A stretch of DNA of 14,225 nt from a virus (IMGVR_UViG_2778261499_000007); one strand, 5' to 3'. Shown: positions 78-14,225, counted from the first letter of the stretch. Numbers and translations are program-made. Notes: generated by a model not told the origin, from the sequence alone.

Positions 78-156
78 CACCTTCCATCTGTGAGAGCTCT
101 TTGTGCAGCTTATCCATCATGCGCTTGTCTATGGTGCAATGGACTTTCGGACTCAT
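1..156 (-). CDS. 5' part (codons 1-52) of a wrap-around 152-aa CDS; putative tail-completion / virion-morphogenesis protein (HK97 gp10-like)
   Basis: ATG at 156-154 is preceded by GGAG with an 8-nt spacer. This ATG overlaps the TGA (155-153) of the upstream gene as ATGA. The frame stays open through base 1 and continues at 14148. N-terminus: MSPKVHCTIDKRMMDKLHKELSQMEGVAVGWDDGKHYSGLNYATLAAIHSEG. The stretch ATLAAIHSEGWGDLPKRSFMESA resembles the yA..vEfG....P.rpF motif of HK97 gp10-type tail components (from memory). Confidence 0.6.
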   Translation of the reverse strand, partial: MSPKVHCTIDKRMMDKLHKELSQMEGVAVGWDDGKHYSGLNYATLAAIHSEG

Positions 157-956
157 TTGTTGATCTCCGTGATGTCATCGAGCAACATGTTGGCCTTATC
201 GATCATCGTTTCGTGGAACTCATTCGACACAACAGACTTATCACCTGCGGCAATCTTTCCAGCAGCCTCTCCCTGTGCATATTCCCCGCGATGCTTAGCC
301 CTGGTGGATTTCGTAGCAGCGTTGCCAGCGTTGCTACCCTCTTTAGCACTGTTAACAGCACCCTTTTGCTGTGTTTTGTTCACCTTCTTACTGTTAGTGA
401 AAACTCCGGCATTTTCGACCATCTTCACCTTGAAGGTGCGGAATTCTTCAAAAGTGCAATCAATAGTGATGCAGTCGCCAGAGGAAGAGCTACGCTTAAC
501 TTCACATTTCGTCATGATGAAGTTCTCAAGAAGTCCGGCATCTTCACTAACCAGGCTAACCAGCTGGCGCTTGTCTCTCATTTCCATAAGTGCCTGAACA
601 GCGGCAGCAGGGCGCATAGATTCACGGGGATTATCTGGATCAGTGTTCCGGTCGATGTAGTTCTCTTTCCGGATGATATGAGGGGAAGAGGTGATAATAC
701 CCGTAAAGCTGACAGATTTATCTTTAATGACGGCATGGTCTGACATGGTGGTGCCATCCTCGACCGCATAGCTCGATTTCTCGACAGGGAACGAATAGCT
801 GACATCAGAGATTGAGTCAAAGAAGATAGCCACGTTATCGGTATAGTTGAAGCCATCCATTATATTTTTGTTTTGTGAATATCCCCCACACATAACAGTG
901 AATGCAGGAGATCTCGACTCAGCTTGTTTTGCAGCTGTCAGAGCATCACTAGCCAT
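153..956 (-). CDS. Putative Dit-like / baseplate-type tail protein (267 aa from Met19 of the track ORF)
   Basis: GGAGG lies 10 nt upstream of the ATG at 956. The track start at 1010 is a TTG with no SD. SFPVEKSSYAVEDGTTMSDHAVIKDKSVSFTGIITS, followed by AAVQALMEMRDKRQLVSLVSEDAGLLENFIMTKCEVKR, matches the PvEdG..isDh...P..l...G pattern plus the later L..l....lv.lvt....y.nm.i....v.r pattern of Dit-like N-terminal domains (from memory). The C-terminal third is low complexity. Confidence 0.45.
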   Translation of the reverse strand: MASDALTAAKQAESRSPAFTVMCGGYSQNKNIMDGFNYTDNVAIFFDSISDVSYSFPVEKSSYAVEDGTTMSDHAVIKDKSVSFTGIITSSPHIIRKENYIDRNTDPDNPRESMRPAAAVQALMEMRDKRQLVSLVSEDAGLLENFIMTKCEVKRSSSSGDCITIDCTFEEFRTFKVKMVENAGVFTNSKKVNKTQQKGAVNSAKEGSNAGNAATKSTRAKHRGEYAQGEAAGKIAAGDKSVVSNEFHETMIDKANMLLDDITEINK

Positions 957-1150
957 ATTAAACATGCCTCCAAATTGGTCCACTTCATGGATTTGGCTAA
1001 ACTCGTGCAAGTAGCACTCATCCCGAGGGTGTTAAAGCCAAACCTGCAAAAGATGCAGGCAAAATAGAACTTATCGTTGCCCTGCTTAAAATCTGCAGAA
1101 AATACAGGGCAGTTATTCGTTAGAATCGCTTATAGCTCTTCCCGAGAGCG

Positions 1151-1543: not shown

Positions 1544-2578
1544 TTATTTAGCCTTGGCAGCGGCGGCGGTGTTTTTAACACTCACTTTAACCACAACTTC
1601 AGGCATCATGTTCATGAAAGCATAAGAGGATTCAACGAAGATTTCGCGTTTGCCTCTGGACTCTTCCATATACATGAAAGCTTCACGTGCAGCGCCGTTT
1701 GCCAGCTTCAGGTTGCGAGCGCAAGGGCCGAAAAATTGAGTATAAACGCCCACCATATCGCCTAACGCATGCGGCTGGAACTGTGGGACTAGATAAGCAG
1801 TATTCTCTGGCAGACTATCCATTTGCACCACACGCAGGGCTAAGCCCGGAATGCGGAAGGTCGGGAAGCCCGGCAGAATATCCTCAGGGAACATCAGACC
1901 TTTATCGGTAATATTCTGATTGCCGAACAACAGCACTTTACGGAGCAGTTCATCAGTCTGAATTGCAGCAAAGAGCTCAGCACGGCAGAACAGGGTGAAA
2001 CCACGCAGAGCGCGAACGACACCACGCTGTTTAACCTTGCTCAGTGCAACCAGGTCCTGCAGCTGTTTAAGGATATCTTGAGCTAGATCCACTTCTGAAG
2101 TGGTTTGCTGTGCGCCCAGCAGTTCGCACACATTCAGTTCTTTACCCTTGGTGAGGATAATTTTGTTCTCAAAGAGAGCAAGCTGGCGTGCTTCTTCATG
2201 GGTCTGGCGTAAGCCTTCGCCCAGTTGAATAACACGACGAGCGGTTACAGACTCTAAATTCTCTTCGGAATCTTTGCCAGGAACGCGGATACCCTGCCAG
2301 TCAGAAGGATAAATAGCACTTGATGCGGCAGTGAACGCCATATCACCCGTGCCCGTTTCACGCTCATCTGCGGTAATGGTCGCCATCTGTTCACCGTAGC
2401 GCGGATACTGACCGAAAGCGGTTTGTTTCACCTGCCGAACTTTGTCATATTCAAATTTGAAGGTATTGCACAGAGCAGTAGTGTTGAAGATATCCATTGC
2501 TGAAATAATCTGATTATCCAGCGGGATGTCTTTAATCAGACCACACAGATCGCGAACTTCGAATTCTTTCTTAGCCAT
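1544..2578 (-). CDS. Major capsid protein, lambda gpE-like (344 aa)
   Basis: AGGAGG lies 6 nt upstream of the ATG at 2578. The track start at 2584 is a TTG. Size, position directly after a gpD-like gene, and overall sequence character fit the phage major capsid protein E family. It is followed by a strong terminator. Confidence 0.7.
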   Translation of the reverse strand: MAKKEFEVRDLCGLIKDIPLDNQIISAMDIFNTTALCNTFKFEYDKVRQVKQTAFGQYPRYGEQMATITADERETGTGDMAFTAASSAIYPSDWQGIRVPGKDSEENLESVTARRVIQLGEGLRQTHEEARQLALFENKIILTKGKELNVCELLGAQQTTSEVDLAQDILKQLQDLVALSKVKQRGVVRALRGFTLFCRAELFAAIQTDELLRKVLLFGNQNITDKGLMFPEDILPGFPTFRIPGLALRVVQMDSLPENTAYLVPQFQPHALGDMVGVYTQFFGPCARNLKLANGAAREAFMYMEESRGKREIFVESSYAFMNMMPEVVVKVSVKNTAAAAKAK

Positions 2579-2589
2579 TTCCAACCTCC

Positions 2590-2925
2590 TTATTGTGCAA
2601 CACGCAAATCGCCATTGCTGGCAGCAATAACAGCGGCTAAGCCGTCTTTATCCACGTAGGCCGGATTGATATAACAGCCTTTGTTGGCAACAACGATAAA
2701 AGCATCACCAACCTCAGCACGTTCTACAACCAGCAGCGGAGTTTTATCGGTGTGCGTTTCTTTAACGAAGGTCTCAACCTCGCCAGCCTCAGTCACCACA
2801 ACAACAGTGCCAGCCGGAATCTCAGCTTTAACTTTGTTTTTAATTTCAACGTCGCGAATACTAAATTGCTCATCTGCGGCGTATGAAATGATGTGTCCGC
2901 GTGTGCGGATAGTCATATCTCTCAT
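2590..2925 (-). CDS. Head decoration / cement protein, lambda gpD-like (111 aa)
   Basis: AGGTGA lies 4 nt upstream of the ATG. About 110 aa with IPAGTVVVV...G..v.....a.VGDAFIVVANKGCY, typical of decoration proteins. It sits immediately upstream of the capsid gene, as in lambda D-E. Confidence 0.6.
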   Translation of the reverse strand: MRDMTIRTRGHIISYAADEQFSIRDVEIKNKVKAEIPAGTVVVVTEAGEVETFVKETHTDKTPLLVVERAEVGDAFIVVANKGCYINPAYVDKDGLAAVIAASNGDLRVAQ

Positions 2926-3410
2926 TTGATCACCTGCGATTTAAATTAACTCCCCTCAAAGAGTTCCGGTATAACCTCTCAAACCGCGACAGGCTCGGGC
3001 CGAAAAGTTATGCCGGAAATCTAAAGGGGGATTGATATAAGGAGAGGGAGATAGCCCCGCACCGTAGCCAAGCGGGGGCTATTCCACATGGGGAAACCGA
3101 CAACAGTCGGATGATAGTTCACAGTATGGGTTACGGTTACTAGAGAGCACTATCACGAAAGGCACTCCCCCGAATCAGTTCAGGCTGCGGTCACATCAGC
3201 GGGGAAATACCTTTCGGGATAGCTACCCACACAGAAAACCCGCAAAAGAAAACTGTGTGGATAACTAGCCCAATAGGAGAATTAATCGACCACTCAACGA
3301 TGATCAGGGTAGTGTTATTTATAGGGCGGCACCGCTACCTGGTCGCCTTTACTTTGGAGGAAAATATGGCAAATCAAGATCTTCTCAAATGATATTGATT
3401 CCATACTATA
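2926..3410 (-). other. About 480-nt ORF-poor, hairpin-dense leader between the SOS promoter and the decoration gene (candidate cos/packaging region or regulatory RNA)
   Basis: Stems read directly: ATAGCCCCGC/GCGGGGCTAT (3051-3081); CCGAC/GTCGG; CCACACAG/CTGTGTGG (3228-3260); TCCGG.ATAAC/GTTATACCGGA (2966-3019, 11 bp with 1 mismatch); and a nested long hairpin at about 3140-3226. There is a GC-rich quasi-symmetric block, GGGCGGCACCGCTACCTGGTCGCC, at 3324-3347. Confidence 0.4.
3256..3264 (-). promoter_or_regulatory. Perfect DnaA box (TTATCCACA on the minus strand)
   Basis: The plus strand reads tgtggataa, 9/9. It lies within the 3' arm of the CCACACAG/CTGTGTGG hairpin and its 3' flank. Confidence 0.35.
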
Positions 3411-3428
3411 CTGTATATTATATCAGTA
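3409..3428. promoter_or_regulatory. LexA operator (SOS box)
   Basis: TACTGTATATTATATCAGTA equals TACTG-N10-CAGTA with an all-A/T spacer. This is the canonical E. coli-type CTG-N10-CAG palindrome. It overlaps the -10 element of the promoter below. Confidence 0.8.
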
Positions 3429-3445
3429 TTTACTCACATTGTCAA
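3417..3445 (-). promoter_or_regulatory. Consensus sigma70 promoter firing leftward toward the decoration/capsid operon
   Basis: The minus strand reads TTGACA (3445-3440), a 17-nt spacer atgtgagtaaatactga, then TATAAT (3422-3417). Both hexamers and the spacing are perfect. Confidence 0.8.
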
Positions 3446-3775
3446 CACCTTGATTATATAAATTCTAATAATTAGCGTAGTAACGGTATTTTCAGACCTC
3501 TATCAATCCCATCAATACGTCACCCCCACCCTTTAGATGCATACATCCGACCTACTTTGTAGGCTTGGCGTACTGCCAAGGTCGCAGCTATGCGACTCCT
3601 ATCTATCACCACTTTATAAAGCTTGATAGATATCTTTTGATCAATATCAATGTTTTCCGGGTATTTACCCGGCTATAGTTCGAATCAAGGAAGGGGAGCA
3701 TTGATAGAGACACCCAAAGGGGTGACTGAAAGTCACCTGGCATAGCCAGTGAAAGCACCCAACCGAACAAACAAA

Positions 3776-3790
3776 TCAACTTCTCGCAAA
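3776..3790 (+). promoter_or_regulatory. Conserved leader motif copy 1 (TCAACTTCTCGCAAA), 26 nt before an ATG
   Basis: Identical 15-mer to 4367-4381, at the same distance from the start codon. Confidence 0.6.
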
Positions 3791-3801
3791 AGGTGATAGT
3801 T

Positions 3802-3924
3802 ATGGGTATCAAGAACAGTGCCAGCGCATGGCAAAAGGCCAGGTTTCATCACCCACACATTGTTAAGGCAATTGAGGTGGTTGGAGTTTTAGCCCTGATG
3901 TTAGCTCTGTGTGTGGAGGTGTGA
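3802..3924 (+). CDS. Small protein, 40 aa, with a hydrophobic C-terminal segment
   Basis: AGGTGA SD upstream. Translation: MGIKNSASAWQKARFHHPHIVKAIEVVGVLALMLALCVEV. It is below the ORF-track size cut-off and was translated by hand. Confidence 0.4.
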   Translation: MGIKNSASAWQKARFHHPHIVKAIEVVGVLALMLALCVEV

Positions 3925-3925
3925 G

Positions 3926-4006
3926 ATGGGCAAAGGAGGCAAAGCATTTTTAATAGGTCTGGCTATCCTGGATGTTCTACTAATCATGATTAAGCGGAGT
4001 TTATGA
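3926..4006 (+). CDS. Small membrane peptide, 26 aa
   Basis: GGAGG lies 6 nt upstream. The start is 1 nt after the previous stop. Translation: MGKGGKAFLIGLAILDVLLIMIKRSL. Confidence 0.4.
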   Translation: MGKGGKAFLIGLAILDVLLIMIKRSL

Positions 4007-4025: not shown

Positions 4026-4286
4026 ATGACGGGGGCTAAAGATATCAGGAGACTGAGGGAAGAGCTGATAGCTGAAATTAAAGCTAAGGCAAAGCAAATG
4101 GAGATAGCCGCACAAATGGATGTAGCGGAACAGATGTACAAGATGGTTGAGGAGGGAACGCCACGACAGGTTATCGCTAAAACCTTCGGTGTGGGGATCG
4201 CCACCGTGCACAGAAGGCTGAAAGCCTATGCCGACTACCACAATATCGAGAGAAAGGAGGATGGGAGATTTAAGAAGAATAAATAG
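4026..4286 (+). CDS. Stand-alone recombinase-type HTH protein (86 aa; coiled helix plus a Hin/resolvase-like HTH, no catalytic domain)
   Basis: GTPRQVIAKTFGVGIATVHRRL aligns with Hin GHPRQQLAIIFGIGVSTLYRYF (10/22 identical, from memory). The N-terminal 40 aa is a charged helix. No serine-recombinase catalytic domain is present anywhere in the element. Confidence 0.55.
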   Translation: MTGAKDIRRLREELIAEIKAKAKQMEIAAQMDVAEQMYKMVEEGTPRQVIAKTFGVGIATVHRRLKAYADYHNIERKEDGRFKKNK

Positions 4287-4292
4287 TAGGAA

Positions 4293-4336
4293 CAGGCCCG
4301 AAGGGCTTAGCTTTAGCTAAGGTCCTATCAGGACTC
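4293..4336 (+). repeat. Inverted repeat IR-R (44 nt, partner of 1437-1480)
   Basis: Sequence: caggcccgaagggcttagctttagctaaggtcctatcaggactc. It starts 7 nt after the HTH gene stop. Confidence 0.9.
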
Positions 4337-4392: not shown

Positions 4393-5103
4393 ATGTTTAA
4401 AGGTCTTGTTGTTACGCTATTGGCTTGCATTGTATTTGGTCCATGGGTGTTAGTAATTGCTTTACCTATATTGCTGATCATGAGCTTAGGGAATGATATT
4501 AAAAAGCTGCATGCACAATATAAGGAGCATCCTGGAGCAGTCATAACAAGTCTGGTTATAGTCGCGGGGCTTATTGGCTGGGTCTACTTCTCTCTTCCCA
4601 CAGGAAATACAACTGCAAATGTAGAAGAGGCGAACGCACAGCATGAAGAAGTGGTTAACGTCGCCGACCTTACATGGGAGGACAGGGTAAAAGCATATAA
4701 ATATATTTATGGTGTGCTAGATTGCGATCTCTCTAAAGATATAGGATGCACAGATAAATACCAGATTCACGCCTGGCTGTGGAATCATGCAGAAAAAGGT
4801 GCTTGCAACCAGATTAAAGTGGCGGTTAACAGTGGGGCACCTACTGGGAAAAATAAAGATGTTCTGACGGTATGGTGCAAGGATGTAAAAGGCAATGATC
4901 GTTGGCTACAGATGCGCCACATGGACGGTGTAAGCATAGAAACTACACGAACGGCTCGATGGTATAACGGTGAACTCGTTCACGAAGCATGGCAGAATAA
5001 CGCCTGGATCACTGAGGGAACACTCCTGAATGTTGATATGGAAGCATTGAAGATGCTTAATGAGATGTACGGTGAAGCCGTAGAAACCTCTCCGATGAAA
5101 TAA
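4393..5103 (+). CDS. Membrane protein (236 aa) with N-terminal TM helices and a Cys/Trp-rich extracytoplasmic domain; function unknown
   Basis: Hydrophobic stretches: LVVTLLACIVFGPWVLVIALPILLIM and VITSLVIVAGLIGWVYF. Soluble C-terminal domain. Followed by a strong terminator. Confidence 0.6.
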   Translation: MFKGLVVTLLACIVFGPWVLVIALPILLIMSLGNDIKKLHAQYKEHPGAVITSLVIVAGLIGWVYFSLPTGNTTANVEEANAQHEEVVNVADLTWEDRVKAYKYIYGVLDCDLSKDIGCTDKYQIHAWLWNHAEKGACNQIKVAVNSGAPTGKNKDVLTVWCKDVKGNDRWLQMRHMDGVSIETTRTARWYNGELVHEAWQNNAWITEGTLLNVDMEALKMLNEMYGEAVETSPMK

Positions 5104-5113
5104 CCACACCTAC

Positions 5114-5140
5114 CAGGGGCCATCACGGCCCCTTTTTATT
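5114..5140 (+). terminator. Rho-independent terminator
   Basis: AGGGGCC-atcac-GGCCCCT followed by TTTTTATTT. Confidence 0.8.
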
Positions 5141-5200
5141 TATCCCCTATTTACACTCCTTTCAGTCCTGATCATCACTCCCTACCCCCTGATCAATTAA

Positions 5201-5251
5201 CCCCTATTTAAGGGGTATTTAATGGGTATTTAATGCCTATTTATTGATTTA
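5201..5251. repeat. Phased 11-bp repeats (SSSTATTTAWK, 4-5 copies)
   Basis: TATTTA starts at 5205, 5216, 5227 and 5238, an exact 11-bp period. There is a degenerate copy at about 5247 and an isolated copy at 5148. Confidence 0.7.
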
Positions 5252-6486
5252 ATCCGTTTTATGCCACAACCGCCCGGTTGACAGAGTAAGAGAGAGGGTG
5301 TAACCCTTTTTCGTAATACTAATAAAATCAATAGCTTAGCTCAATTGGCCTTTTCTCTGTTTTTGTCAAATTTAACATACCCTAAAAAACTGCAAAATCT
5401 GGCTGCAAGATTATCTGCAGCTGGATTTCTTACACCTCAATTTGTGGTATCACCCTGACTAGTTTGTGCATAAAATGAACAGTTTTTAACATTTCCTCTT
5501 CACCTGGTAACCACACAAAAAGCTAAAAACGAGGCACAGATAATCTTAGAGGCCTGTTTTCTTGTTATCACTCTGGAAACGTCGTAGAAGTGATTTTGAT
5601 GAAAGATGACCTACCCTATTACACCCCCATTTTTTGTTATCACAATTGCATCCTGTGCGGTGTATGGCTGTGTGCTGAAAGCGGTCTTGGGTGTGGGTGT
5701 CAGAAATATCCATTAGCGGTATTAATACCCGTCAGATGTTCGTCTGAGGTGCCAGGCAGGCGCTCCCCCACCTCCCTTTTTTCTTCTAACAATTCTCAAA
5801 TATCACACCACTGCCGACCACGTTACTACTCTGTTAATTCTTAAGCTTTGCTGTATGTTGTGCACATTATTTATTCAGGTGCGTGTACGTAAATTCTGGG
5901 CCTCCTTATCATGATTTTTAAATCAGATTTTGTAGTTCGGTTTCTTAGTGTAGATAAGATCTATTATGTTAAATGCAATTTTCCCAACCCTTCAAATCAA
6001 TGACTTACATGTAAGCATGCACTAACACCCCACACAGCACATTAGACGTATAGATGGCTATATCCCACATTTTTGATTGTTTTGTAGTCATTCCCCTGAT
6101 CATTTAACCAGTATAGTTTGTTCTTTGCAGACCACAAAATCGGAATTTACATCTGATTAACATAATCTGTTAGCATGATCACTATTACCCACACAACAAT
6201 AACCCCATGCAAGACTCTTCAGGCAATTTATCGGCGTGTTGGTGTGAACAGTCTTTCATGTTCTTTATGTTTTCATTGTCCTGTGTGAGGGAAGGATGGA
6301 CTGCCCCAGGGGCCACACTTATGATGCCCGGTCAACATAGCTATTGATAAAATCAACGGGTGTTGATCTGCATATTTCCCACACATGAGAGGAAATCAGA
6401 GCAAAGAGAGAGGAGAGAGGTTTGCTAGTCAAAATAGGTCAATTGACGGCTAATACAGAGTAAAAAATCAGATGCAATCACTCCCC

Positions 6487-6673
6487 ACCTGTTGGGATTT
6501 CCCGCACCTGTATAAGAATACAGTCATACTTTCCCGTTATACGGTCATACACATGATGGAATAACCTGTTGGAATTTCCTACAGGTTTAACCATACACAG
6601 GAGCTAACCTGTTGGAATTTCCTACTACTACCTGTCGGTATTTCCCACAGGTACCTGTTGGAATTTCCCACAC
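6487..6673 (+). repeat. Iteron array (5 x 21 bp, ACCTGTTGGAATTTCCCACAS); candidate replication origin
   Basis: Copies start at 6487, 6564, 6607, 6630 and 6653. The last three have a 23-bp period. Each contains an internal ACCTGT...ACAGGT dyad. An AT-rich flank (6674-6708) contains GATCTATTCTCTT on the minus strand (6683-6695), 1 mismatch from the oriC 13-mer GATCTnTTnTTTT. Confidence 0.75.
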
Positions 6674-6797
6674 TAATAGATAAAGAGAATAGATCAATAA
6701 AAAGAACTCCCCCTATAATCCCCCAACAAGGGGGGATGGGGAGGGATCAGAGAGTGGGGAAGGTTTTCTAAGGGAAAAGCTTAACCCACAAATGAAA

Positions 6798-7086
6798 GCC
6801 TAAAGAGCATTAGCGACTCTTTAGGCAATCTGTGTGTGGGGTGACAATGTATTCCATACATGACACGTCACCCAATTGTGTGTGGGGTGCTTACAGCACT
6901 TAAGCCTCTGGCTTAACCCTTCGGGCCTCTGTGTGGGAAGCGTAGTGCGATAGCACGTAGCTTTATAATGTGGAGTCCGGATAAGAGACTTCTGTTTCCA
7001 ATCCGGACCGTTTAAGCGAGGGATTCCGCTCGCCCGTGTATGCACACACGTAATAGGACGCTCAGAAATCGATTTTAAGGCCCAAA
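6798..7086 (+). other. Cluster of GC-rich hairpins (candidate structured ncRNA or single-strand initiation signal)
   Basis: GCCTAAAGAG/CTCTTTAGGC (6798-6826); GGGTGAC..GTCACCC with nested ATGTAT/ATACAT (6839-6873); CCC-TTCG-GGG context (6917-6925); GTCCGGAT/ATCCGGAC (6975-7008); GCGAG/CTCGC (7016-7033); AGGCCC/GGGCCT (7069-7086). TGTGTGTGGGGTG occurs twice (6831, 6877). Confidence 0.35.
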
Positions 7087-7231
7087 ACGGGGCCTACAGC
7101 AACCTAAACCATACTCCATAGTGCAATTGCATTGCCTGATGCTTAAATCGCGTTGTAGGGCATCTCATGAGGTTTGAGTTTAACACCCTCCAAAGTTTTA
7201 ACAAAAAGTGCTCTCCCTCCATTGTGGGCCA

Positions 7232-7261
7232 TTGACAATCTTATTGCATAAATGCTATAAG
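7232..7261 (+). promoter_or_regulatory. Promoter P1 (TTGACA-18-TATAAG)
   Basis: Read directly. Shares the ATTGACAAT motif with P2 and P3. Confidence 0.5.
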
Positions 7262-7360
7262 TGATTCTGGTTTTGACACGGTAGGGGCCATTAATAATGT
7301 TTACCCCTTTGCTGTGGACTTGCTTGCACCTATAGCACACCTAAATGATAATAATTCTCA

Positions 7361-7389
7361 TTGACAATTGGTTGACAATATGATAAGAT
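7361..7389 (+). promoter_or_regulatory. Promoter P2 (TTGACA-17-TAAGAT)
   Basis: Read directly. A second TTGACAAT lies 11 bp downstream, at 7372. Confidence 0.5.
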
Positions 7390-7424
7390 TATAAATAGGG
7401 GGAGAAACAGATCCGGAGGTCAAT

Positions 7425-7574
7425 GTGGAAATTACTGATGCAATAGCGATCATCAACCTGGCTGTACTGTGGTGCGGTGTTGCCTACATAGCCGGAGTAA
7501 CTGCAATCGACAATCTCGAAGAAAAAATGATAGATAAATACAAAAAGATTGTTGACAATTTGACGAATGTCTGA
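7425..7574 (+). CDS. Small single-TM peptide (49 aa, GTG start)
   Basis: GGAGG lies 5 nt upstream of the GTG. Translation: VEITDAIAIINLAVLWCGVAYIAGVTAIDNLEEKMIDKYKKIVDNLTNV. Not in the ORF track; translated by hand. Confidence 0.4.
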   Translation: MEITDAIAIINLAVLWCGVAYIAGVTAIDNLEEKMIDKYKKIVDNLTNV

Positions 7575-7580
7575 TAAAAT
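7552..7580 (+). promoter_or_regulatory. Promoter P3 (TTGACA-17-TAAAAT)
   Basis: Read directly. It lies inside the 3' end of the 49-aa ORF. Confidence 0.55.
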
Positions 7581-7630
7581 ATAAAGCATAGGGTAATTCT
7601 CATCATAGTGAATTTCCTTAAACAAAAATG

Positions 7631-7662
7631 CGGGGGCTTGTCTTAAGTTCCCGTTTCTTTTT
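7631..7662 (+). terminator. Intrinsic terminator / attenuator in the leader of the replication operon
   Basis: CGGGGGCTT-gtctt-AAGTTCCCG (9-bp stem including two G.U pairs) followed by TTTCTTTTT. It sits between P3 and the ATG at 7706. Confidence 0.55.
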
Positions 7663-7705
7663 AACCGTATATCGCACAGGCGGTGAGCTGACAGGAGATT
7701 GAATC

Positions 7706-7915
7706 ATGGCTAAAACCGGACCGATAAGCCAGCTGGTAAACTGGACTACTGACGAAATCGTCGAGAACGTGCTTAAAGGTAACTTTCGAAAAACTTCCGT
7801 TTATGCATTTATTCGTAAACACAAAGGGGAATACCCACATATTGAAGCGGCAATAGAAAAACTTAACTTTATCCGCATTGAGCGTGAGCTGGAAAGATAT
7901 AAACATCTACTTTGA
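7706..7915 (+). CDS. Small protein (69 aa), possible DNA-binding regulator
   Basis: AGGAG lies 8 nt upstream. First gene of the rightward operon. KTSVYAFIRKHKGEYP weakly recalls AlpA/Xis-type sTiYr.i..g.fP. Confidence 0.5.
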   Translation: MAKTGPISQLVNWTTDEIVENVLKGNFRKTSVYAFIRKHKGEYPHIEAAIEKLNFIRIERELERYKHLL

Positions 7916-7939
7916 TAAATAATCTTGGAGGATCATATT

Positions 7940-8326
7940 ATGGCAAATAACGATGAAAATTTTACTCCCTTTTTTAAACGTTTCATCAAATACACTTTTA
8001 AAAATCCGATTGCAAAAACTGCAACCAATAAAGAAAGATTTCACTTAAATGTGTTGGAGGTAACAATTTATGGTGAAATGGTAAGTTATTCTTTTAAGGA
8101 GGGTGAAGAAATAATTATCTCAGAGCTCTCGACGCAGACATTAGCAGACGATTATGATGTTACAGAGAAAACAGTAAGGTCGGCTATCAAAACATTAGAG
8201 GCTGCAGGTCTGATAAACGTTAAACGAGAACAGGGCAAATCGAATATCTACGAATTGCTAATTACCCCTGATCAGCTTGGCAAGATGTGCGATGAGCAGG
8301 GTATTAGAGAATATTTTATATATTAA
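7940..8326 (+). CDS. Winged-helix DNA-binding protein, short paralog of the Rep-like protein (128 aa)
   Basis: GGAGG lies 8 nt upstream of the ATG at 7940. The track start at 7925 is a TTG. It aligns along its whole length with the N-terminal 130 aa of the next protein (FTP.F..FI.Y.F..P.A....NK...ERF.L...E..IYG.MV...F.....I.ISE...LA.......VSAIK.LE.AGLI......G.SN.Y.LL.TPDQL..MC.E.G). Confidence 0.65.
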   Translation: MANNDENFTPFFKRFIKYTFKNPIAKTATNKERFHLNVLEVTIYGEMVSYSFKEGEEIIISELSTQTLADDYDVTEKTVRSAIKTLEAAGLINVKREQGKSNIYELLITPDQLGKMCDEQGIREYFIY

Positions 8327-8337
8327 TGGGGGGAACT

Positions 8338-9258
8338 ATGGCAGGAAATAAACTGGGGGCACCTTTTACCCCCTCTTTCGATTTCTTTATTCAGTATGAT
8401 TTTGATAAACCAGTAGCAACAACAATTTCTAATAAAAAGACTGGAACAGTTAAAGAGCGCTTCTATTTAACAGACTTTGAAATGTTGATTTATGGAAAAA
8501 TGGTGGGATTTCATTTTAACGGTGAGGGAATTTATATTTCAGAGCAAAAACTGGCAACTCAACTCAGAAAGGATCGCGGGAAAATAGTAAGCGCTATTAA
8601 ATCTCTGGAAAATGCCGGGCTTATTTCTAAAGATAGCCGGAAAGGCATGTCTAATAATTACAAATTGCTGAAAACCCCTGATCAATTGTTGGATATGTGC
8701 ATTGAGAAGGGCGTAAATATTCCAGAAGGCATCTTAGAGACTTTCGGAAAGACTGCCGCTAAAGTAGAACAGCCTCAGGAAGCCCCAAAACAAGCCACAC
8801 AGCAAGCTAAAAAGGCTAAAGTAGTGCAATTGCCTACCCAAGACACTAAAGCGCCTCAAATTAACGCTGTTAGTGACAAGCCACGCCGGGGCCGTCCTGT
8901 GAAAGATGTCACCGATGGAGGCTGGATCGTCCTGGGTGAGAGTGAGGCTAAAGGCATAATGCGATCACTGTGGGAAAGCAAATACAAAGATTTAAACAAA
9001 CGTCGCCCGATCCTTTTGTCAAAGATTCAGGAGGATTTTTACACCGCAGAAGAGGTAAGCCAACATAAAGGGAAAAGAGAGGGTGAAATCTGGAAACCGG
9101 AAGAATACTGGCATTTAACCAGACCTGTGTTTATTTTTGCAAATAAGCTTATTGGGATGGGATTTGAAATATTGTTGGATAAAACCTGCGGAGATTATCC
9201 CGAAATATTGTGGAGAAATGTTAGAAAAAATAAAAAAGGCATTTTAGAGTTTAAATAA
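8338..9258 (+). CDS. Putative replication initiator (306 aa): N-terminal winged helix plus a PRRGRP basic linker plus a C-terminal domain
   Basis: GGGGGG lies 4 nt upstream of the ATG at 8338, and the paralog alignment starts at MAGNK. The wHTH pattern is typical of plasmid/phage initiators. The iterons lie about 1.3 kb upstream. Confidence 0.55.
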   Translation: MAGNKLGAPFTPSFDFFIQYDFDKPVATTISNKKTGTVKERFYLTDFEMLIYGKMVGFHFNGEGIYISEQKLATQLRKDRGKIVSAIKSLENAGLISKDSRKGMSNNYKLLKTPDQLLDMCIEKGVNIPEGILETFGKTAAKVEQPQEAPKQATQQAKKAKVVQLPTQDTKAPQINAVSDKPRRGRPVKDVTDGGWIVLGESEAKGIMRSLWESKYKDLNKRRPILLSKIQEDFYTAEEVSQHKGKREGEIWKPEEYWHLTRPVFIFANKLIGMGFEILLDKTCGDYPEILWRNVRKNKKGILEFK

Positions 9259-9275
9259 AAACACTGATAATCTTA

Positions 9276-9289
9276 TTTTTTTTTTTTTT
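9276..9289 (+). repeat. T14 homopolymer tract
   Basis: Counted directly. It lies between the Rep-like stop and the RBS of the next small ORF. Confidence 0.9.
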
Positions 9290-9306
9290 GTTTAAGGAAA
9301 TTTAAA

Positions 9307-9453
9307 ATGTATGGCGATTTTGATTATTACCTGGAAAAGGAAAAATATTTTGAAGATGAACTATCACAACATTTTTCATATTGGGAAGAATATTGTGGTT
9401 GGTTAGCTGAAGATCCAGCAGATGAAGAAAATGATTCTGACATCCCTTATTAA
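9307..9453 (+). CDS. Highly acidic, aromatic-rich 48-aa protein
   Basis: AAGGA lies 8 nt upstream. Translation: MYGDFDYYLEKEKYFEDELSQHFSYWEEYCGWLAEDPADEENDSDIPY (18 D/E, 2 K, 0 R). Not in the ORF track; translated by hand. Confidence 0.5.
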   Translation: MYGDFDYYLEKEKYFEDELSQHFSYWEEYCGWLAEDPADEENDSDIPY

Positions 9454-11190: not shown

Positions 11191-13293
11191 ATGGCAATGA
11201 AGGAAGTAGCCAAGCTAACAAACGTTATTTACTGGGATTCTGATAAATCCAGCTGGCGAAAAGAAGTTAAACGGCTTGAGGATTATAAAAAATCCTGGAA
11301 GAAAGCTACCGACGATATAGCTAAAGCGGATTTTAAATCTAATCAGGCTGTGCTCAGAACACAAAGAACACGCGCTAAGGTGGAAGAGCAGATCGCCAGA
11401 GCACAGAAGAAACAACGTGCTCAGGCTGTCAGCCGTCTGACCGGGGGCAATAATCCGGAGCTCTCCTCTATGCGCAAGTTCTATCAGCAGCAAGCCAGAG
11501 AGGCCGCCAGACAACAAAAACTGTTAGATCGTAGTGTTGGAGATGTTCAGCACAGAAAAGCACGTGTAGGGGCCAACAGTGCACGAATCAGCAGCATGTT
11601 TGATGGCTCCCTGGTTGCTCAGTTCCAATCCAGAATTCAGAGAGTTAATGCTGATTATGCTAAAGGGGCTATTAACCTGCAGACCTATAATCAGAAAATG
11701 GCCCGACTCAGATCTGAAATGAAGATGGCAACAGCAGAGGCCGGAAAATTTCAGAGCAGACTAGACAAAGCTGCGGTAGCAGGATCAAAGCTGCATGACA
11801 ACCTGGGCAAACTCAACTCCACACTAGGCAAGATAGCTATTGGCCTTACTGCCGCTGGCTGGGGTGTTCAGCGTGCTGTTAGTGGTGCTATGGGTAGCCT
11901 TGCAGATCGCAACAGTGCGTATTTCAGCTTAATGGCCCAGAACAAGGATGATAAAGAAAAAACTGATCAGCAGATGGCCTACGTCAAAAGAATCTCTTAT
12001 GACTACGGGATGGATCAGCGTGAGACTGAAGGCGGCTTTATGCGCTTTGCTGCAGCCACACCAAGCATAAAAGAGAAAGATAAGCAGGATCTCTTTGAGG
12101 CTATGGCGATTAAAGGCCGATCAGTGGGTGCTACCGCAGACCAACAGAACAGGGCTATCGTTGCACTAGGACAAATATATAGCAAGGGCGGTCGAGTGTA
12201 TGCGGAAGAGCTTAAGGGCCAACTTTCTGAAGCCCTGGCAGGTTCTCAGGTAGATTTCACTAAGGCCGCTATCGATGCCGGAGTCATCAAGAAAGAGGAA
12301 GAATTTAATAAAGCCCTTGAAGATGGCAAGATCACCATGGACAAGCTTCTTCCTTCTCTGGTGAAAATCTGGGGTGCTGCAAAAGAAACTAAAGCTTTTG
12401 CTGAATCCATGAAACAGCCAGAAGTAGCAATGCAGCGCATGAAAAACAGCTTTAACGAGCTGGCGATTCAGTTTATGGGTGTTGTGGATCCTGCAGATGG
12501 CGTTATTAGCTTATCTGAATCTCTAATCTCCATCTTCGAAGACCTCACCACTGATATGGACGGCAGCGGGAGCGCGGCAAAACAGTTCGGTGAGGCAGTC
12601 GGGGCTGCCATGCGGGAGATCATGTATTGGGTAGGCTTCGCTAAGGGATATATCGAGATTAAGGCTAAAGAGTTCGGCATGACCAGTGAGGAAGTCGGAG
12701 GATGGATCGGCAAGCTGGTTGTTGCAATCGCAGGTCTGAAGATCATCGGCACACTTCTTTCTCCGTTTACCGGACTGATTTCACTTGTCACACAGCTGAT
12801 AGCCTTGTTAGGTAAAATCCCTGGTATGAGCAAGCTTCTGGCTTCTGCCTCAGGTGGAACGGCAACAGGAGCAGCGGTCATCAGTGCAGGATCTAACGCT
12901 GAAAGAAGTTTCATTGATGGCAAGACGCAGGAAATGAGTAAGGAGAACTCAAAACAGGGTGCTTTGTTTGAGCTGGGAAGATTTGTTAGCAATGCTGGCG
13001 CACTATTCACACCTGGCGGTGATACTGGTCCTTTGTTCGATCAGGTCAGAGGCTGGTTTAATAAAGGGCCAACATTGACAGTAGACACTGGCATCAGACC
13101 AACACCAACGGGTGGCATAGCTATCCAGAATGGTGGATATCAACCAGTCCAAGTAAATGTAGCCCCACAAGGTGAGATTTCCGGCAAATGGGAGATAACC
13201 ATCGATGAGGGGGGAATTGCCAGGGTAATTCAGAAGGAAGTCAGCGATCAGTTGGATTGGAAAGCCACGCAGGAATCTAACCAGCTTTTCTAA
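11191..13293 (+). CDS. Tail tape measure protein (700 aa)
   Basis: GAGG lies 6 nt upstream. Long coiled-coil N-terminus. Conserved tape-measure core: ADQQNRAIVALGQIYSKGGRVYAEELKGQLSEALAGSQVDFTKAAIDAGV. Gly/Ala-rich hydrophobic segments: GKLVVAIAGLKIIGTLLSPFTGLISLVTQLIALLG. Confidence 0.85.
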   Translation: MAMKEVAKLTNVIYWDSDKSSWRKEVKRLEDYKKSWKKATDDIAKADFKSNQAVLRTQRTRAKVEEQIARAQKKQRAQAVSRLTGGNNPELSSMRKFYQQQAREAARQQKLLDRSVGDVQHRKARVGANSARISSMFDGSLVAQFQSRIQRVNADYAKGAINLQTYNQKMARLRSEMKMATAEAGKFQSRLDKAAVAGSKLHDNLGKLNSTLGKIAIGLTAAGWGVQRAVSGAMGSLADRNSAYFSLMAQNKDDKEKTDQQMAYVKRISYDYGMDQRETEGGFMRFAAATPSIKEKDKQDLFEAMAIKGRSVGATADQQNRAIVALGQIYSKGGRVYAEELKGQLSEALAGSQVDFTKAAIDAGVIKKEEEFNKALEDGKITMDKLLPSLVKIWGAAKETKAFAESMKQPEVAMQRMKNSFNELAIQFMGVVDPADGVISLSESLISIFEDLTTDMDGSGSAAKQFGEAVGAAMREIMYWVGFAKGYIEIKAKEFGMTSEEVGGWIGKLVVAIAGLKIIGTLLSPFTGLISLVTQLIALLGKIPGMSKLLASASGGTATGAAVISAGSNAERSFIDGKTQEMSKENSKQGALFELGRFVSNAGALFTPGGDTGPLFDQVRGWFNKGPTLTVDTGIRPTPTGGIAIQNGGYQPVQVNVAPQGEISGKWEITIDEGGIARVIQKEVSDQLDWKATQESNQLF

Positions 13294-14148: not shown

Positions 14149-14225
14149 CCCCTCAGAGTGGATAGCTGCCAGTGTGGCGTAATTCAGGCCGCTATAGTGC
14201 TTTCCGTCATCCCAGCCAACCGCTA
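14149..14225. repeat. Terminal overlap copy 2 (identical to 1-77)
   Basis: Same comparison as for copy 1. Confidence 0.9.

Follow-up and report, generated by a model that had tools for sequence, protein, structure and literature searches.

In the late operon of phage lambda (the PR'/6S/tR'/Q system), a strong constitutive promoter produces an untranslated RNA, the short 6S RNA, and a terminator lying ahead of the structural genes has to be read through before these are expressed. The immunity leader of P4 (PLE, seqA-cI-seqC, CI RNA) and the C4 RNAs of P1, P7 and N15 likewise begin at a constitutive promoter and comprise an untranslated leader of several hundred nucleotides (nt); there, the leader's own RNA causes premature termination and silences the genes downstream. 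We describe here a leader that would work most like one of these two systems and that is a member of neither. It lies on the minus strand of a 14,225-nt stretch of viral DNA (IMGVR_UViG_2778261499_000007, referred to at its full length as the window), where about 487 nt of untranslated sequence (2926..3412) precede a pair of head genes. The ends of the window are redundant, bases 1-77 recurring at 14149-14225, and it therefore represents one turn of a 14,148-bp circle, a plasmid of Escherichia coli. Its stability beyond that expected from composition, its compensatory changes and its strand specificity mark the leader, among few independent lineages, as a conserved structured RNA, and we put at about one half the probability that it is a cis-acting attenuator or leader RNA that gates the two head genes.

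The promoter of the leader, here called P_cap (3417..3445, minus strand), is of the sigma-70 type with an extended -10 element. It consists of TTGACA (3445-3440), a 17-nt spacer, TG and TATAAT (3422-3417), so that as TTGACA-17-TGnTATAAT it agrees with the consensus at 12 of 12 positions and is the top sigma-70 match in the whole window; an earlier note on this DNA had placed a structured leader downstream of a promoter, and this is what we find. P_cap is invariant in all relatives belonging to clade A, by which we mean the window's plasmid and its close relatives, and the counterpart in clade B, the 13.3-kb Escherichia coli plasmids L009-L017, reads TTGACA-17-TGnTAAAAT. The transcript would start at 3412-3410 and run to the ATG of the first head gene, which encodes a 111-amino-acid (aa) protein, at 2925. 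The Shine-Dalgarno sequence of this gene, AGGUGA, and its AUG (2923..2935, minus strand) are in AU-rich sequence outside the predicted consensus helices. No additional good sigma-70 promoter for the head genes was seen in the window or in clade B. Among the first transcribed bases there is a -10-like TATAGT (3410-3405), which resembles the sigma-dependent pause element of PR'.

Between the promoter and the 111-aa gene there is no credible open reading frame (ORF), as the earlier note had remarked. The minus-strand ORFs of the gap are only 21-33 aa long and none is conserved; the sole ORF with an ATG (3404..3315, 29 aa) starts in a 5' hairpin that varies between relatives, and its frame is broken by one-base insertions or deletions (indels) in the relatives L019 and L021. 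These observations bear on an account in terms of leader-peptide attenuation, in which a short ORF opening 10-15 nt past the transcript start would be translated and the position of the ribosome would select between helices. All the relatives carry a start codon close to the 5' end, with 13-29 codons after it, and in three subtypes the frame reaches an invariant UAUAAAUAA stop. Nevertheless, the ORF has no Shine-Dalgarno sequence, neither the sequence nor the length of the peptide is conserved, the indels in L019 and L021 are uncompensated and the clade B peptide is unrelated, all of which makes attenuation by a leader peptide very improbable.

The leader RNA is considerably more stable than its composition would predict. 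Its sense strand has a minimum free energy of -172.6 kcal/mol, compared to -137.4 +/- 6.0 kcal/mol for shuffled sequences (z -5.85; 0 of 100 shuffles as good), in keeping with the many stable stems of the earlier description, and the clade B leader gives a z of -5.86. The antisense strand of the leader reaches a z of -3.67, the sense strand being better by 20 kcal/mol, whilst the DNA upstream of the promoter gives -2.35 and a control of equally conserved non-coding plasmid DNA (5300-5800) gives a z of about 0 on both strands. The region is also exceptionally well conserved in relatives: the bin 3201-3300 shows 99.8% identity among four full-length relatives, the top value of all 141 100-base bins and above that of any coding bin. 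A comparison of nine plasmids shows long invariant runs in the leader, with substitutions and indels in its flanks. When clade B is compared by blastn, no more than a 65-nt block of its leader is recognised.

We collected the leaders of clade B and the more distant leaders (L019-L021 at 86%, L022 and L023 at 77%) by look-ups through the 111-aa protein, and RNAalifold, applied to 11 sequences, returned a consensus of 14 helices with 112 pairs. In this alignment 96.2% of the cells form a standard pair, as opposed to 40-50% when the 3' partners are slid by 1-3 columns. Double changes occur in 13 pairs, where column shuffles give 3.6 +/- 1.6 (none of 500 reaches 13); the shuffles are a control that overstates significance for few, related sequences such as these, drawn from two clades in a single host species. 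MAFFT misaligns parts of clade B, so that the count of double changes is, if anything, low. Read in the sense orientation, the 112 consensus pairs include 17-22 that are G.U; on the other strand, or in a DNA cruciform, each of these would turn into an A.C mismatch, and the structure therefore belongs to the minus-strand transcript. A pattern of the invariant loop found no match in IMG/VR or in 185,579 species-representative genomes, and in metagenomes its matches were limited to four contigs that belong to this plasmid family and a single chance one; locus searches by the capsid protein returned nothing in IMG/VR or in the GTDB genomes. With no more distant copies of the RNA found, the covariation rests on the two clades.

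From its 5' end the RNA (all positions on the minus strand) opens with hairpin P1, AAUCAA...UUGAUU (3371..3400), whose closing stem is kept and whose loop and length vary, with different loops in the window, L004, L008 and L019 types. Hairpin H1/H2 (3344..3371) follows, with CCUCC (3360-3356) in its loop; in clade B its outer stem can, by eye in the alignment, re-form in the shifted register GCGG/CCGC. The 3' arm of H1/H2 overlaps the 5' arm of hairpin X (3325..3347; GGCGACC-AGGUAGC-GGUGCCGCC, loop CAGGUAGCGGUG), and the loop of X overlaps helix H3, making the pairings at this place mutually exclusive. A single-stranded stretch, UAUAAAUAACACU, occupies 3311..3323, and the final 12 bases of the stretch (AUAAAUAACACU) are the same in all relatives of the two clades. 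Hairpin H4, UGAUCAU...GUGGUCG (3287..3306), belongs to clade A only, the clade B sequence being U-rich instead. It is followed by the long hairpin H5/H6 (3216..3271), of 19 + 3 pairs, with a conserved apical loop UUUUGCGG(G/A)UUU; the changes within clade A keep its pairing by means of wobble, and clade B has a long hairpin with a different stem sequence.

In the long helix H7-H9 (3157..3215; GAAAGGUAUUUCCCCG... / ...CGGGGGAGUGCCUUUC), helices 7 and 8 include five pairs changed on both sides. Here L022 has GAAGAGUAUUUGUC/GACGAGUGCUCUUC in place of GAAAGGUAUUUCCCC/GGGGGAGUGCCUUUC, and in the minimum-energy fold of the clade B leader H7/H8 is rebuilt as a 22-pair helix of other sequence in the same place. 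Hairpins H10 (UGAUAGU...ACUAUCA) and H11 (CCGAC...GUCGG) occupy 3097..3155, and a G-C pair of H11 has become A-U in four of the 11 sequences (CCAAC...GUUGG). The conserved core ends with H12 (3047..3085), a GC-rich hairpin of 15 pairs whose stem carries both-side changes in L022 and in clade B. After it come a pyrimidine-rich tract free of G (3026..3050; 13 C and 0 G in 25 nt), which aligns with a U tract of clade B, and a long irregular hairpin found in clade A only, H13/H14 (2952..3029). The tip of the latter is a hot-spot for the insertion of small hairpin elements, of about 80 nt in L008, L019 and L021 and about 95 nt in L022.

Two further candidates in this region were rejected. A T4-type late promoter within the invariant UAUAAAUA was considered, and its sequence TATAAATA occurs nine times in the genome of phage rV5, where about 10 occurrences are expected, and not ahead of late genes. 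The minimum-energy fold also pairs GAUCAUC (3305-3299) with the distant ribosome-binding site, a contact that is not claimed; judged by eye, it is present in most of clade A, reduced to four pairs in L022 and absent from clade B.

Hairpin X coincides with a feature of the earlier note, a GC-rich, quasi-symmetric block in which GGGCGGC (3324-3330) and GGTCGCC (3341-3347) were taken for the two halves, not contiguous, of the lambda cohesive end, the leader being seen as a plausible cos or terminase-binding region. The block and both 7-mers are present, within 24 bp and upstream of head genes, and to this extent the place resembles lambda cos (cosQ-cosN-cosB). The 7-mers are, however, the opposite-strand arms of a hairpin, and the cohesive-end 12-mer itself, GGGCGGCGACCT, is matched nowhere in the window with 0-1 mismatch; at 2-3 mismatches there are seven matches, compared to 5.6 expected by chance, none of them in 2926-3412. 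In clade B hairpin X reads GCCGCCC-AGGUAGC-GGUGGCGGU. All five differences between the clades fall in the stem, where they keep or extend the pairing (G-C to C-G, G-C to G.U and a new C-G), and the 12-nt loop is invariant. Changes that are confined to the stem and preserve its pairing imply selection on pairing and not on a cos sequence, and we read the block at 3324-3347, on this comparison of the clades, as a hairpin with a conserved loop and not as a split cos.

A DNA packaging signal in the leader, of the cos or the pac type and notably at this inverted repeat, on which the terminase of a helper would act, nevertheless deserves consideration. The region is highly conserved and lies upstream of head genes, where many phages have terminase genes and packaging sites, and a plasmid without terminase must, if it is a satellite, carry a signal for the helper's enzyme somewhere. 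The covarying arms and fixed loop of hairpin X and the strand specificity conferred by the G.U pairs all speak against it, and the relatives of the plasmid's head proteins are not lambdoid. A hijacked packaging signal would be expected to have a homologue in a phage, so that it counts against such a site that a profile of the leader found none in the whole rV5 genome (nhmmer, best E 0.82) and that none was detectable in 50,697 phage records. The only DNA that the plasmid has in common with rV5-like phages at large is a 52-nt element at 3704-3755, outside the leader. Moreover, rV5-like phages are reported to be circularly permuted, headful packagers and not cos phages (PMC8407724, PMC13211470). 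A packaging role of the leader at the level of DNA is thus unlikely, and we hold this explanation to be improbable. If the plasmid has a packaging signal, 5104-7550 is no worse a candidate for its location than the leader; this stretch comprises about 2.4 kb without an ORF of at least 100 aa, of which 5400-5800 is 98% conserved among relatives.

The alternative that the earlier note held in reserve, a regulatory RNA of capsid expression, is the one favoured by the fold, by the covariation and by a terminator in clade B. There, the conserved core ends in a canonical intrinsic terminator (L010, 2901-2935) that combines 15 pairs with a T run and lies 66 nt ahead of the ATG, and by sequence comparison H12 is its homologue. 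We propose that transcription from a consensus, constitutive-looking promoter first crosses some 340 nt of conserved helices (P1, H1/H2 or X, H5, H7-9, H10 and H12), that the ribosome-binding site and the two head genes would be reached only beyond these, and that the RNA would keep these genes shut during simple plasmid maintenance, most transcripts ending at or just past H12. In clade A, where the U tract has turned C-rich and free of G, termination may be partial or Rho-dependent; the tract at 3026..3050 could be what is left of a terminator tail, now weakened, or else a site at which Rho enters. For transcription to go on into the capsid genes, a signal would be required. Infection by an rV5-like helper is its most plausible source, and its target would be either the conserved loops or the H1/X pairings, which exclude each other. 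Relief might come from an antitermination factor, from Rho being inhibited or from binding to the invariant loops. Conditional termination and its relief, that is, every step past the clade B terminator, are what we infer. Cost is an argument for a gate: a perfect promoter on a plasmid, if left unregulated, would make the production of capsid protein expensive.

The second operon of the plasmid is built in a similar manner. A near-copy of P_cap (7552-7580, plus strand; TTGACA-17-TGnTAAAAT, 11 of 12) stands at the head of the operon that extends from the Rep genes as far as the tape measure gene, and within about 50 nt of it there is a terminator-like hairpin (7630-7654, plus strand), which precedes a 69-aa ORF (7706-7915). 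The two promoters are 79% identical over 42 nt, the first transcribed bases included, and the sequence that they share, from -35 to about +12, suggests one common regulator. A strong promoter followed by a terminator thus looks like the general design of the plasmid, and it is this order of promoter, stop and genes, common to both operons, that leads us to read the leader as a gate.

Several observations weigh against a gate. H12 in the window is without a U tract and is not called as a terminator, so that attenuation in this plasmid is extrapolated from clade B. No pairing that could serve as a conserved antiterminator in place of H12 was found; the sole candidate, H8 CGGGGG with H12 CCCCCG, is lost in L022 (by eye), and the mutually exclusive pair formed by H1 and hairpin X does not touch H12. 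No regulator or ligand was identified. The phylogenetic depth of one host species and two clades is small, and several helices rest on few independent changes. Finally, some 340 nt of conserved structure far exceed what a simple attenuator needs, and the RNA may have another role.

The size and the conservation of the RNA are likewise arguments for the main rival explanation, a stand-alone, abundant and trans-acting non-coding RNA (ncRNA) of about 340-375 nt, bounded by the promoter and H12, for which the position before the head genes would be secondary. Such an RNA might act in plasmid immunity or copy control, sense a helper factor or serve as a decoy for it, or take part as a cofactor in the assembly of heads or in packaging. 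The core in clade B is bracketed by a promoter and a canonical terminator of its own, conservation stops exactly at H12, the part from H12 to the gene not being common to the clades, and the loops CAGGUAGCGGUG, AUAAAUAACACU and UUUUGCGG are invariant, as binding surfaces would be. On the other hand, no complementary target of the RNA was found, its matches elsewhere in the plasmid being at chance level, and it shows neither conserved internal repeats of the P4 seqA/seqC kind nor a match to an Rfam family. In clade A, where no terminator is called, it would continue into the genes, which have no second sigma-70 promoter. We consider a stand-alone RNA possible and rank it below a gate on the head genes.

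The comparison with described RNAs can be made more precise. The Rfam scan that the earlier note had proposed gave no family match: in Rfam 15 no model reaches its gathering threshold (riboswitches, C4/CI, pRNA, put, ROOL and GOLLD included), nothing in the leader is found at E <=1, and a permissive scan of 2800-3900 returned only chance-level matches to miRNAs and snoRNAs (E >=0.2). The leader differs from the late leader of lambda in its absence of sequence similarity, in the degenerate terminator of clade A and in its length, some 340 nt of conserved helices against the short 6S RNA, and no Q-like gene was recognised on the plasmid. The parallel that we propose with the P4 and C4 systems is premature termination brought about by the leader RNA itself; the plasmid's leader is without an Rfam C4 match, no conserved seqA/seqC-like internal repeats were found inside it, and it precedes head genes whereas the P4 leader controls replication genes.

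Processive antiterminators (HK022 put, EAR and boxA/nut) also place a structured leader RNA ahead of a terminator. The put element of HK022 is about 70 nt long with two stem-loops, and the leader has no Rfam match to it. The boxA of the rrn operons reads UGCUCUUUAACAA, and the H10 loop, which contains UGCUCUCUAGUAA, was considered as a boxA for its resemblance; the string is lost in L019, L022 and clade B, and the candidate was dropped. The phi29 pRNA, which acts in packaging, ROOL and GOLLD are abundant, highly structured, phage-linked ncRNAs of a few hundred nt with strong promoters. The plasmid RNA has no Rfam match to any of them and is confined to one E. coli plasmid lineage. A bolder account is that the core of about 340 nt constitutes a new class of large structured ncRNA, in a kind of mobile element not described before, a plasmid-borne satellite of 13-14 kb that depends on virulent rV5-like myoviruses and has capsid and tape measure proteins of its own. 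Here the RNA would either sense infection by the helper, a helper protein or metabolite binding the invariant loops and opening the head operon, or act in trans as a cofactor in the assembly or packaging of a small capsid, in the manner of the phi29 pRNA. We think this account doubtful.

The plasmid belongs to a narrow family. A query with 2400-4000 has matches in seven of 5,426 complete E. coli genomes, all of them on plasmids of 13.3-13.7 kb and none on a chromosome, and the core of the leader alone finds the same seven, in none of which it lies under an annotated feature; the RefSeq records leave the RNA unannotated. Clade B is 82% identical to the window in the capsid protein and 65% in the 111-aa protein. 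The protein cluster that includes the capsid protein counts 441 members, and E. coli strains 7_14_47A, E275a and 190 are among the hosts of these plasmids. Modules at 4400-5100, 7600-9400 and 12600-13100 are exchanged between members of the family, whose size stays within 13.2-14.3 kb, and one record, NZ_CP043822.1, is a head-to-tail trimer of 39.6 kb. The narrow size and the trimer fit an element that is constrained in size and possibly packaged from concatemers, although they do not prove it.

The first head gene (2590-2925, minus strand) encodes the 111-aa protein, of no recognised family, and the second (1544-2584, minus strand) a major capsid protein of 346 aa (PHROG 29, major head protein), followed by a terminator-like inverted repeat (1484-1547). 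Other recognised products are a Dit-like baseplate protein (153-1010, minus strand), an 86-aa helix-turn-helix (HTH) protein (4026-4286, plus strand), two Rep/DnaD-like initiators (7925-9258, plus strand) and a 700-aa tape measure protein (11191-13293, plus strand); no terminase, portal, sheath or tube genes were found among the plasmid's genes. The capsid and tape measure proteins are about 25% identical to their counterparts in rV5-like myoviruses (Vequintavirinae), of which, on sequence comparison, they are distant homologues. The lambda-based gene order of the earlier note, cos-[deletion]-D-E, was accordingly drawn from the wrong reference. The order in rV5 is terminase, portal, two genes, decoration protein and capsid protein, so that the 111-aa gene occupies the position of the decoration gene, and this place directly upstream of the capsid gene suggests the decoration role ('gpD-like') once proposed for its product. 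The protein has no match in Pfam or PHROG and no BLASTP similarity to the rV5 decoration protein (ORF61), and its AlphaFold model is unusable, with a predicted local distance difference test (pLDDT) score of 41. Its profile has only a marginal match in the PDB, to the DNA/RNA-binding protein Alba over residues 3-49, which is not significant (E 0.056).

The gene content of the plasmid, its size and 52 nt that it shares with rV5-like phages suggest a phage satellite. It has capsid, Dit-like, tape measure and Rep genes and lacks the full virion set, as fits a satellite, and the helper is most plausibly an rV5-like phage. The literature searched by topic and by accession yielded no description of this plasmid family or of its RNA. 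According to a 2025 review, only one satellite is known to be a plasmid.

ColE1 RNA II is a long, structured, untranslated RNA fed by a strong promoter, and the leader's resemblance to it brings up a function in replication, whether as a ColE1-like pre-primer transcript or as structured DNA serving as an origin. The two Rep/DnaD-like genes and five 21-bp iterons (6485-6671) constitute a standard iteron origin elsewhere on the plasmid, and the leader continues directly into translated head genes; of the explanations weighed, a role in replication is the least probable. The iterons (TAACCTGTTGGAATTTCCTAC and variants) are direct repeats, some of them 23 bp apart, and are the probable origin for the two Rep/DnaD-like proteins.

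The element shared with rV5-like phages (3704-3755, plus strand, upstream of P_cap) is about 90% identical to unannotated DNA in 33 phage records, all with genomes of the size of rV5 (24 named Escherichia, nine deposited as Campylobacter). It contains a hairpin and carries GACACCCAAAGGGGTGACTGAAAGTCACCTGGCATAGCC. Its copy in rV5 (DQ832317, 105688-105738) lies within a 2.6-kb stretch free of annotated genes (104014-106617, corresponding to 1621-4226 of L024), between the convergent blocks of ORF163 and ORF164. Comparison of the plasmid with rV5 by blastn finds only this element and two short pieces within genes. The window, L001, L003 and L028 have it at the same site and other relatives lack it there; in L022 and L023 it stands in the opposite orientation inside the tip of hairpin H14 of the leader (1399-1448 in L022). 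To judge from these positions, it behaves as a small mobile insert.

Other small elements occur nearby. A 45-nt multi-hairpin module, GAGTCCTTCCAGGACCTTAGCTAAAGCTAAGCCCTTTGGG, forms an 89% inverted repeat at 1437-1481 and 4292-4336, with one copy downstream of the capsid gene and one downstream of the HTH gene, and is found again at 6911-6928; the insertion of about 80 nt at the H14 tip of L008, L019 and L021 is, by eye, a related module. The plasmid seems to have been colonised by small hairpin cassettes. The interval from P_cap to the divergent HTH gene (3500-3720) holds many copies of ATCAAT/ATTGAT and TGATAG/CTATCA (CTATCAATCCCATCAATA, GATCAATATCAATG, TTGATAGATATC), which look like operator repeats for the 86-aa HTH protein. 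Across the -10 element of P_cap lies a sequence, TACTGATATAATATACAGTA (3409-3428, minus strand), that conforms to the LexA-box pattern CTG-N10-CAG. This is probably coincidental: several clade A relatives have CAT in place of CAG, and neither clade B nor the second promoter contains the motif. Antisense to the 5' part of the leader (3356-3392, plus strand), GGAGG-N6-ATGGCAAATCAAGAT...TGA forms a mini-ORF of nine codons that resembles, with 76% identity, the first Rep gene at its ribosome-binding site and initial codons (7930-7954). In each of the other clade A relatives examined, ACG stands in place of the ATG; the mini-ORF is therefore not a gene and could be a relic.

We see in this leader an unusually large representative of the structured leaders or attenuators of phage structural genes, carried by a plasmid element that is apparently undescribed. 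For annotation, it cautions against taking a conserved gap upstream of head genes for a packaging site as a matter of course. Should the RNA be only an attenuator, the result is a modest one, a new RNA family of narrow distribution. To our knowledge, satellites of large virulent coliphages are essentially unknown, and a plasmid with capsid and tape measure genes of its own, behind a strong promoter that would be gated by an RNA, may offer a testable handle on how such a satellite stays silent and how it is switched on.

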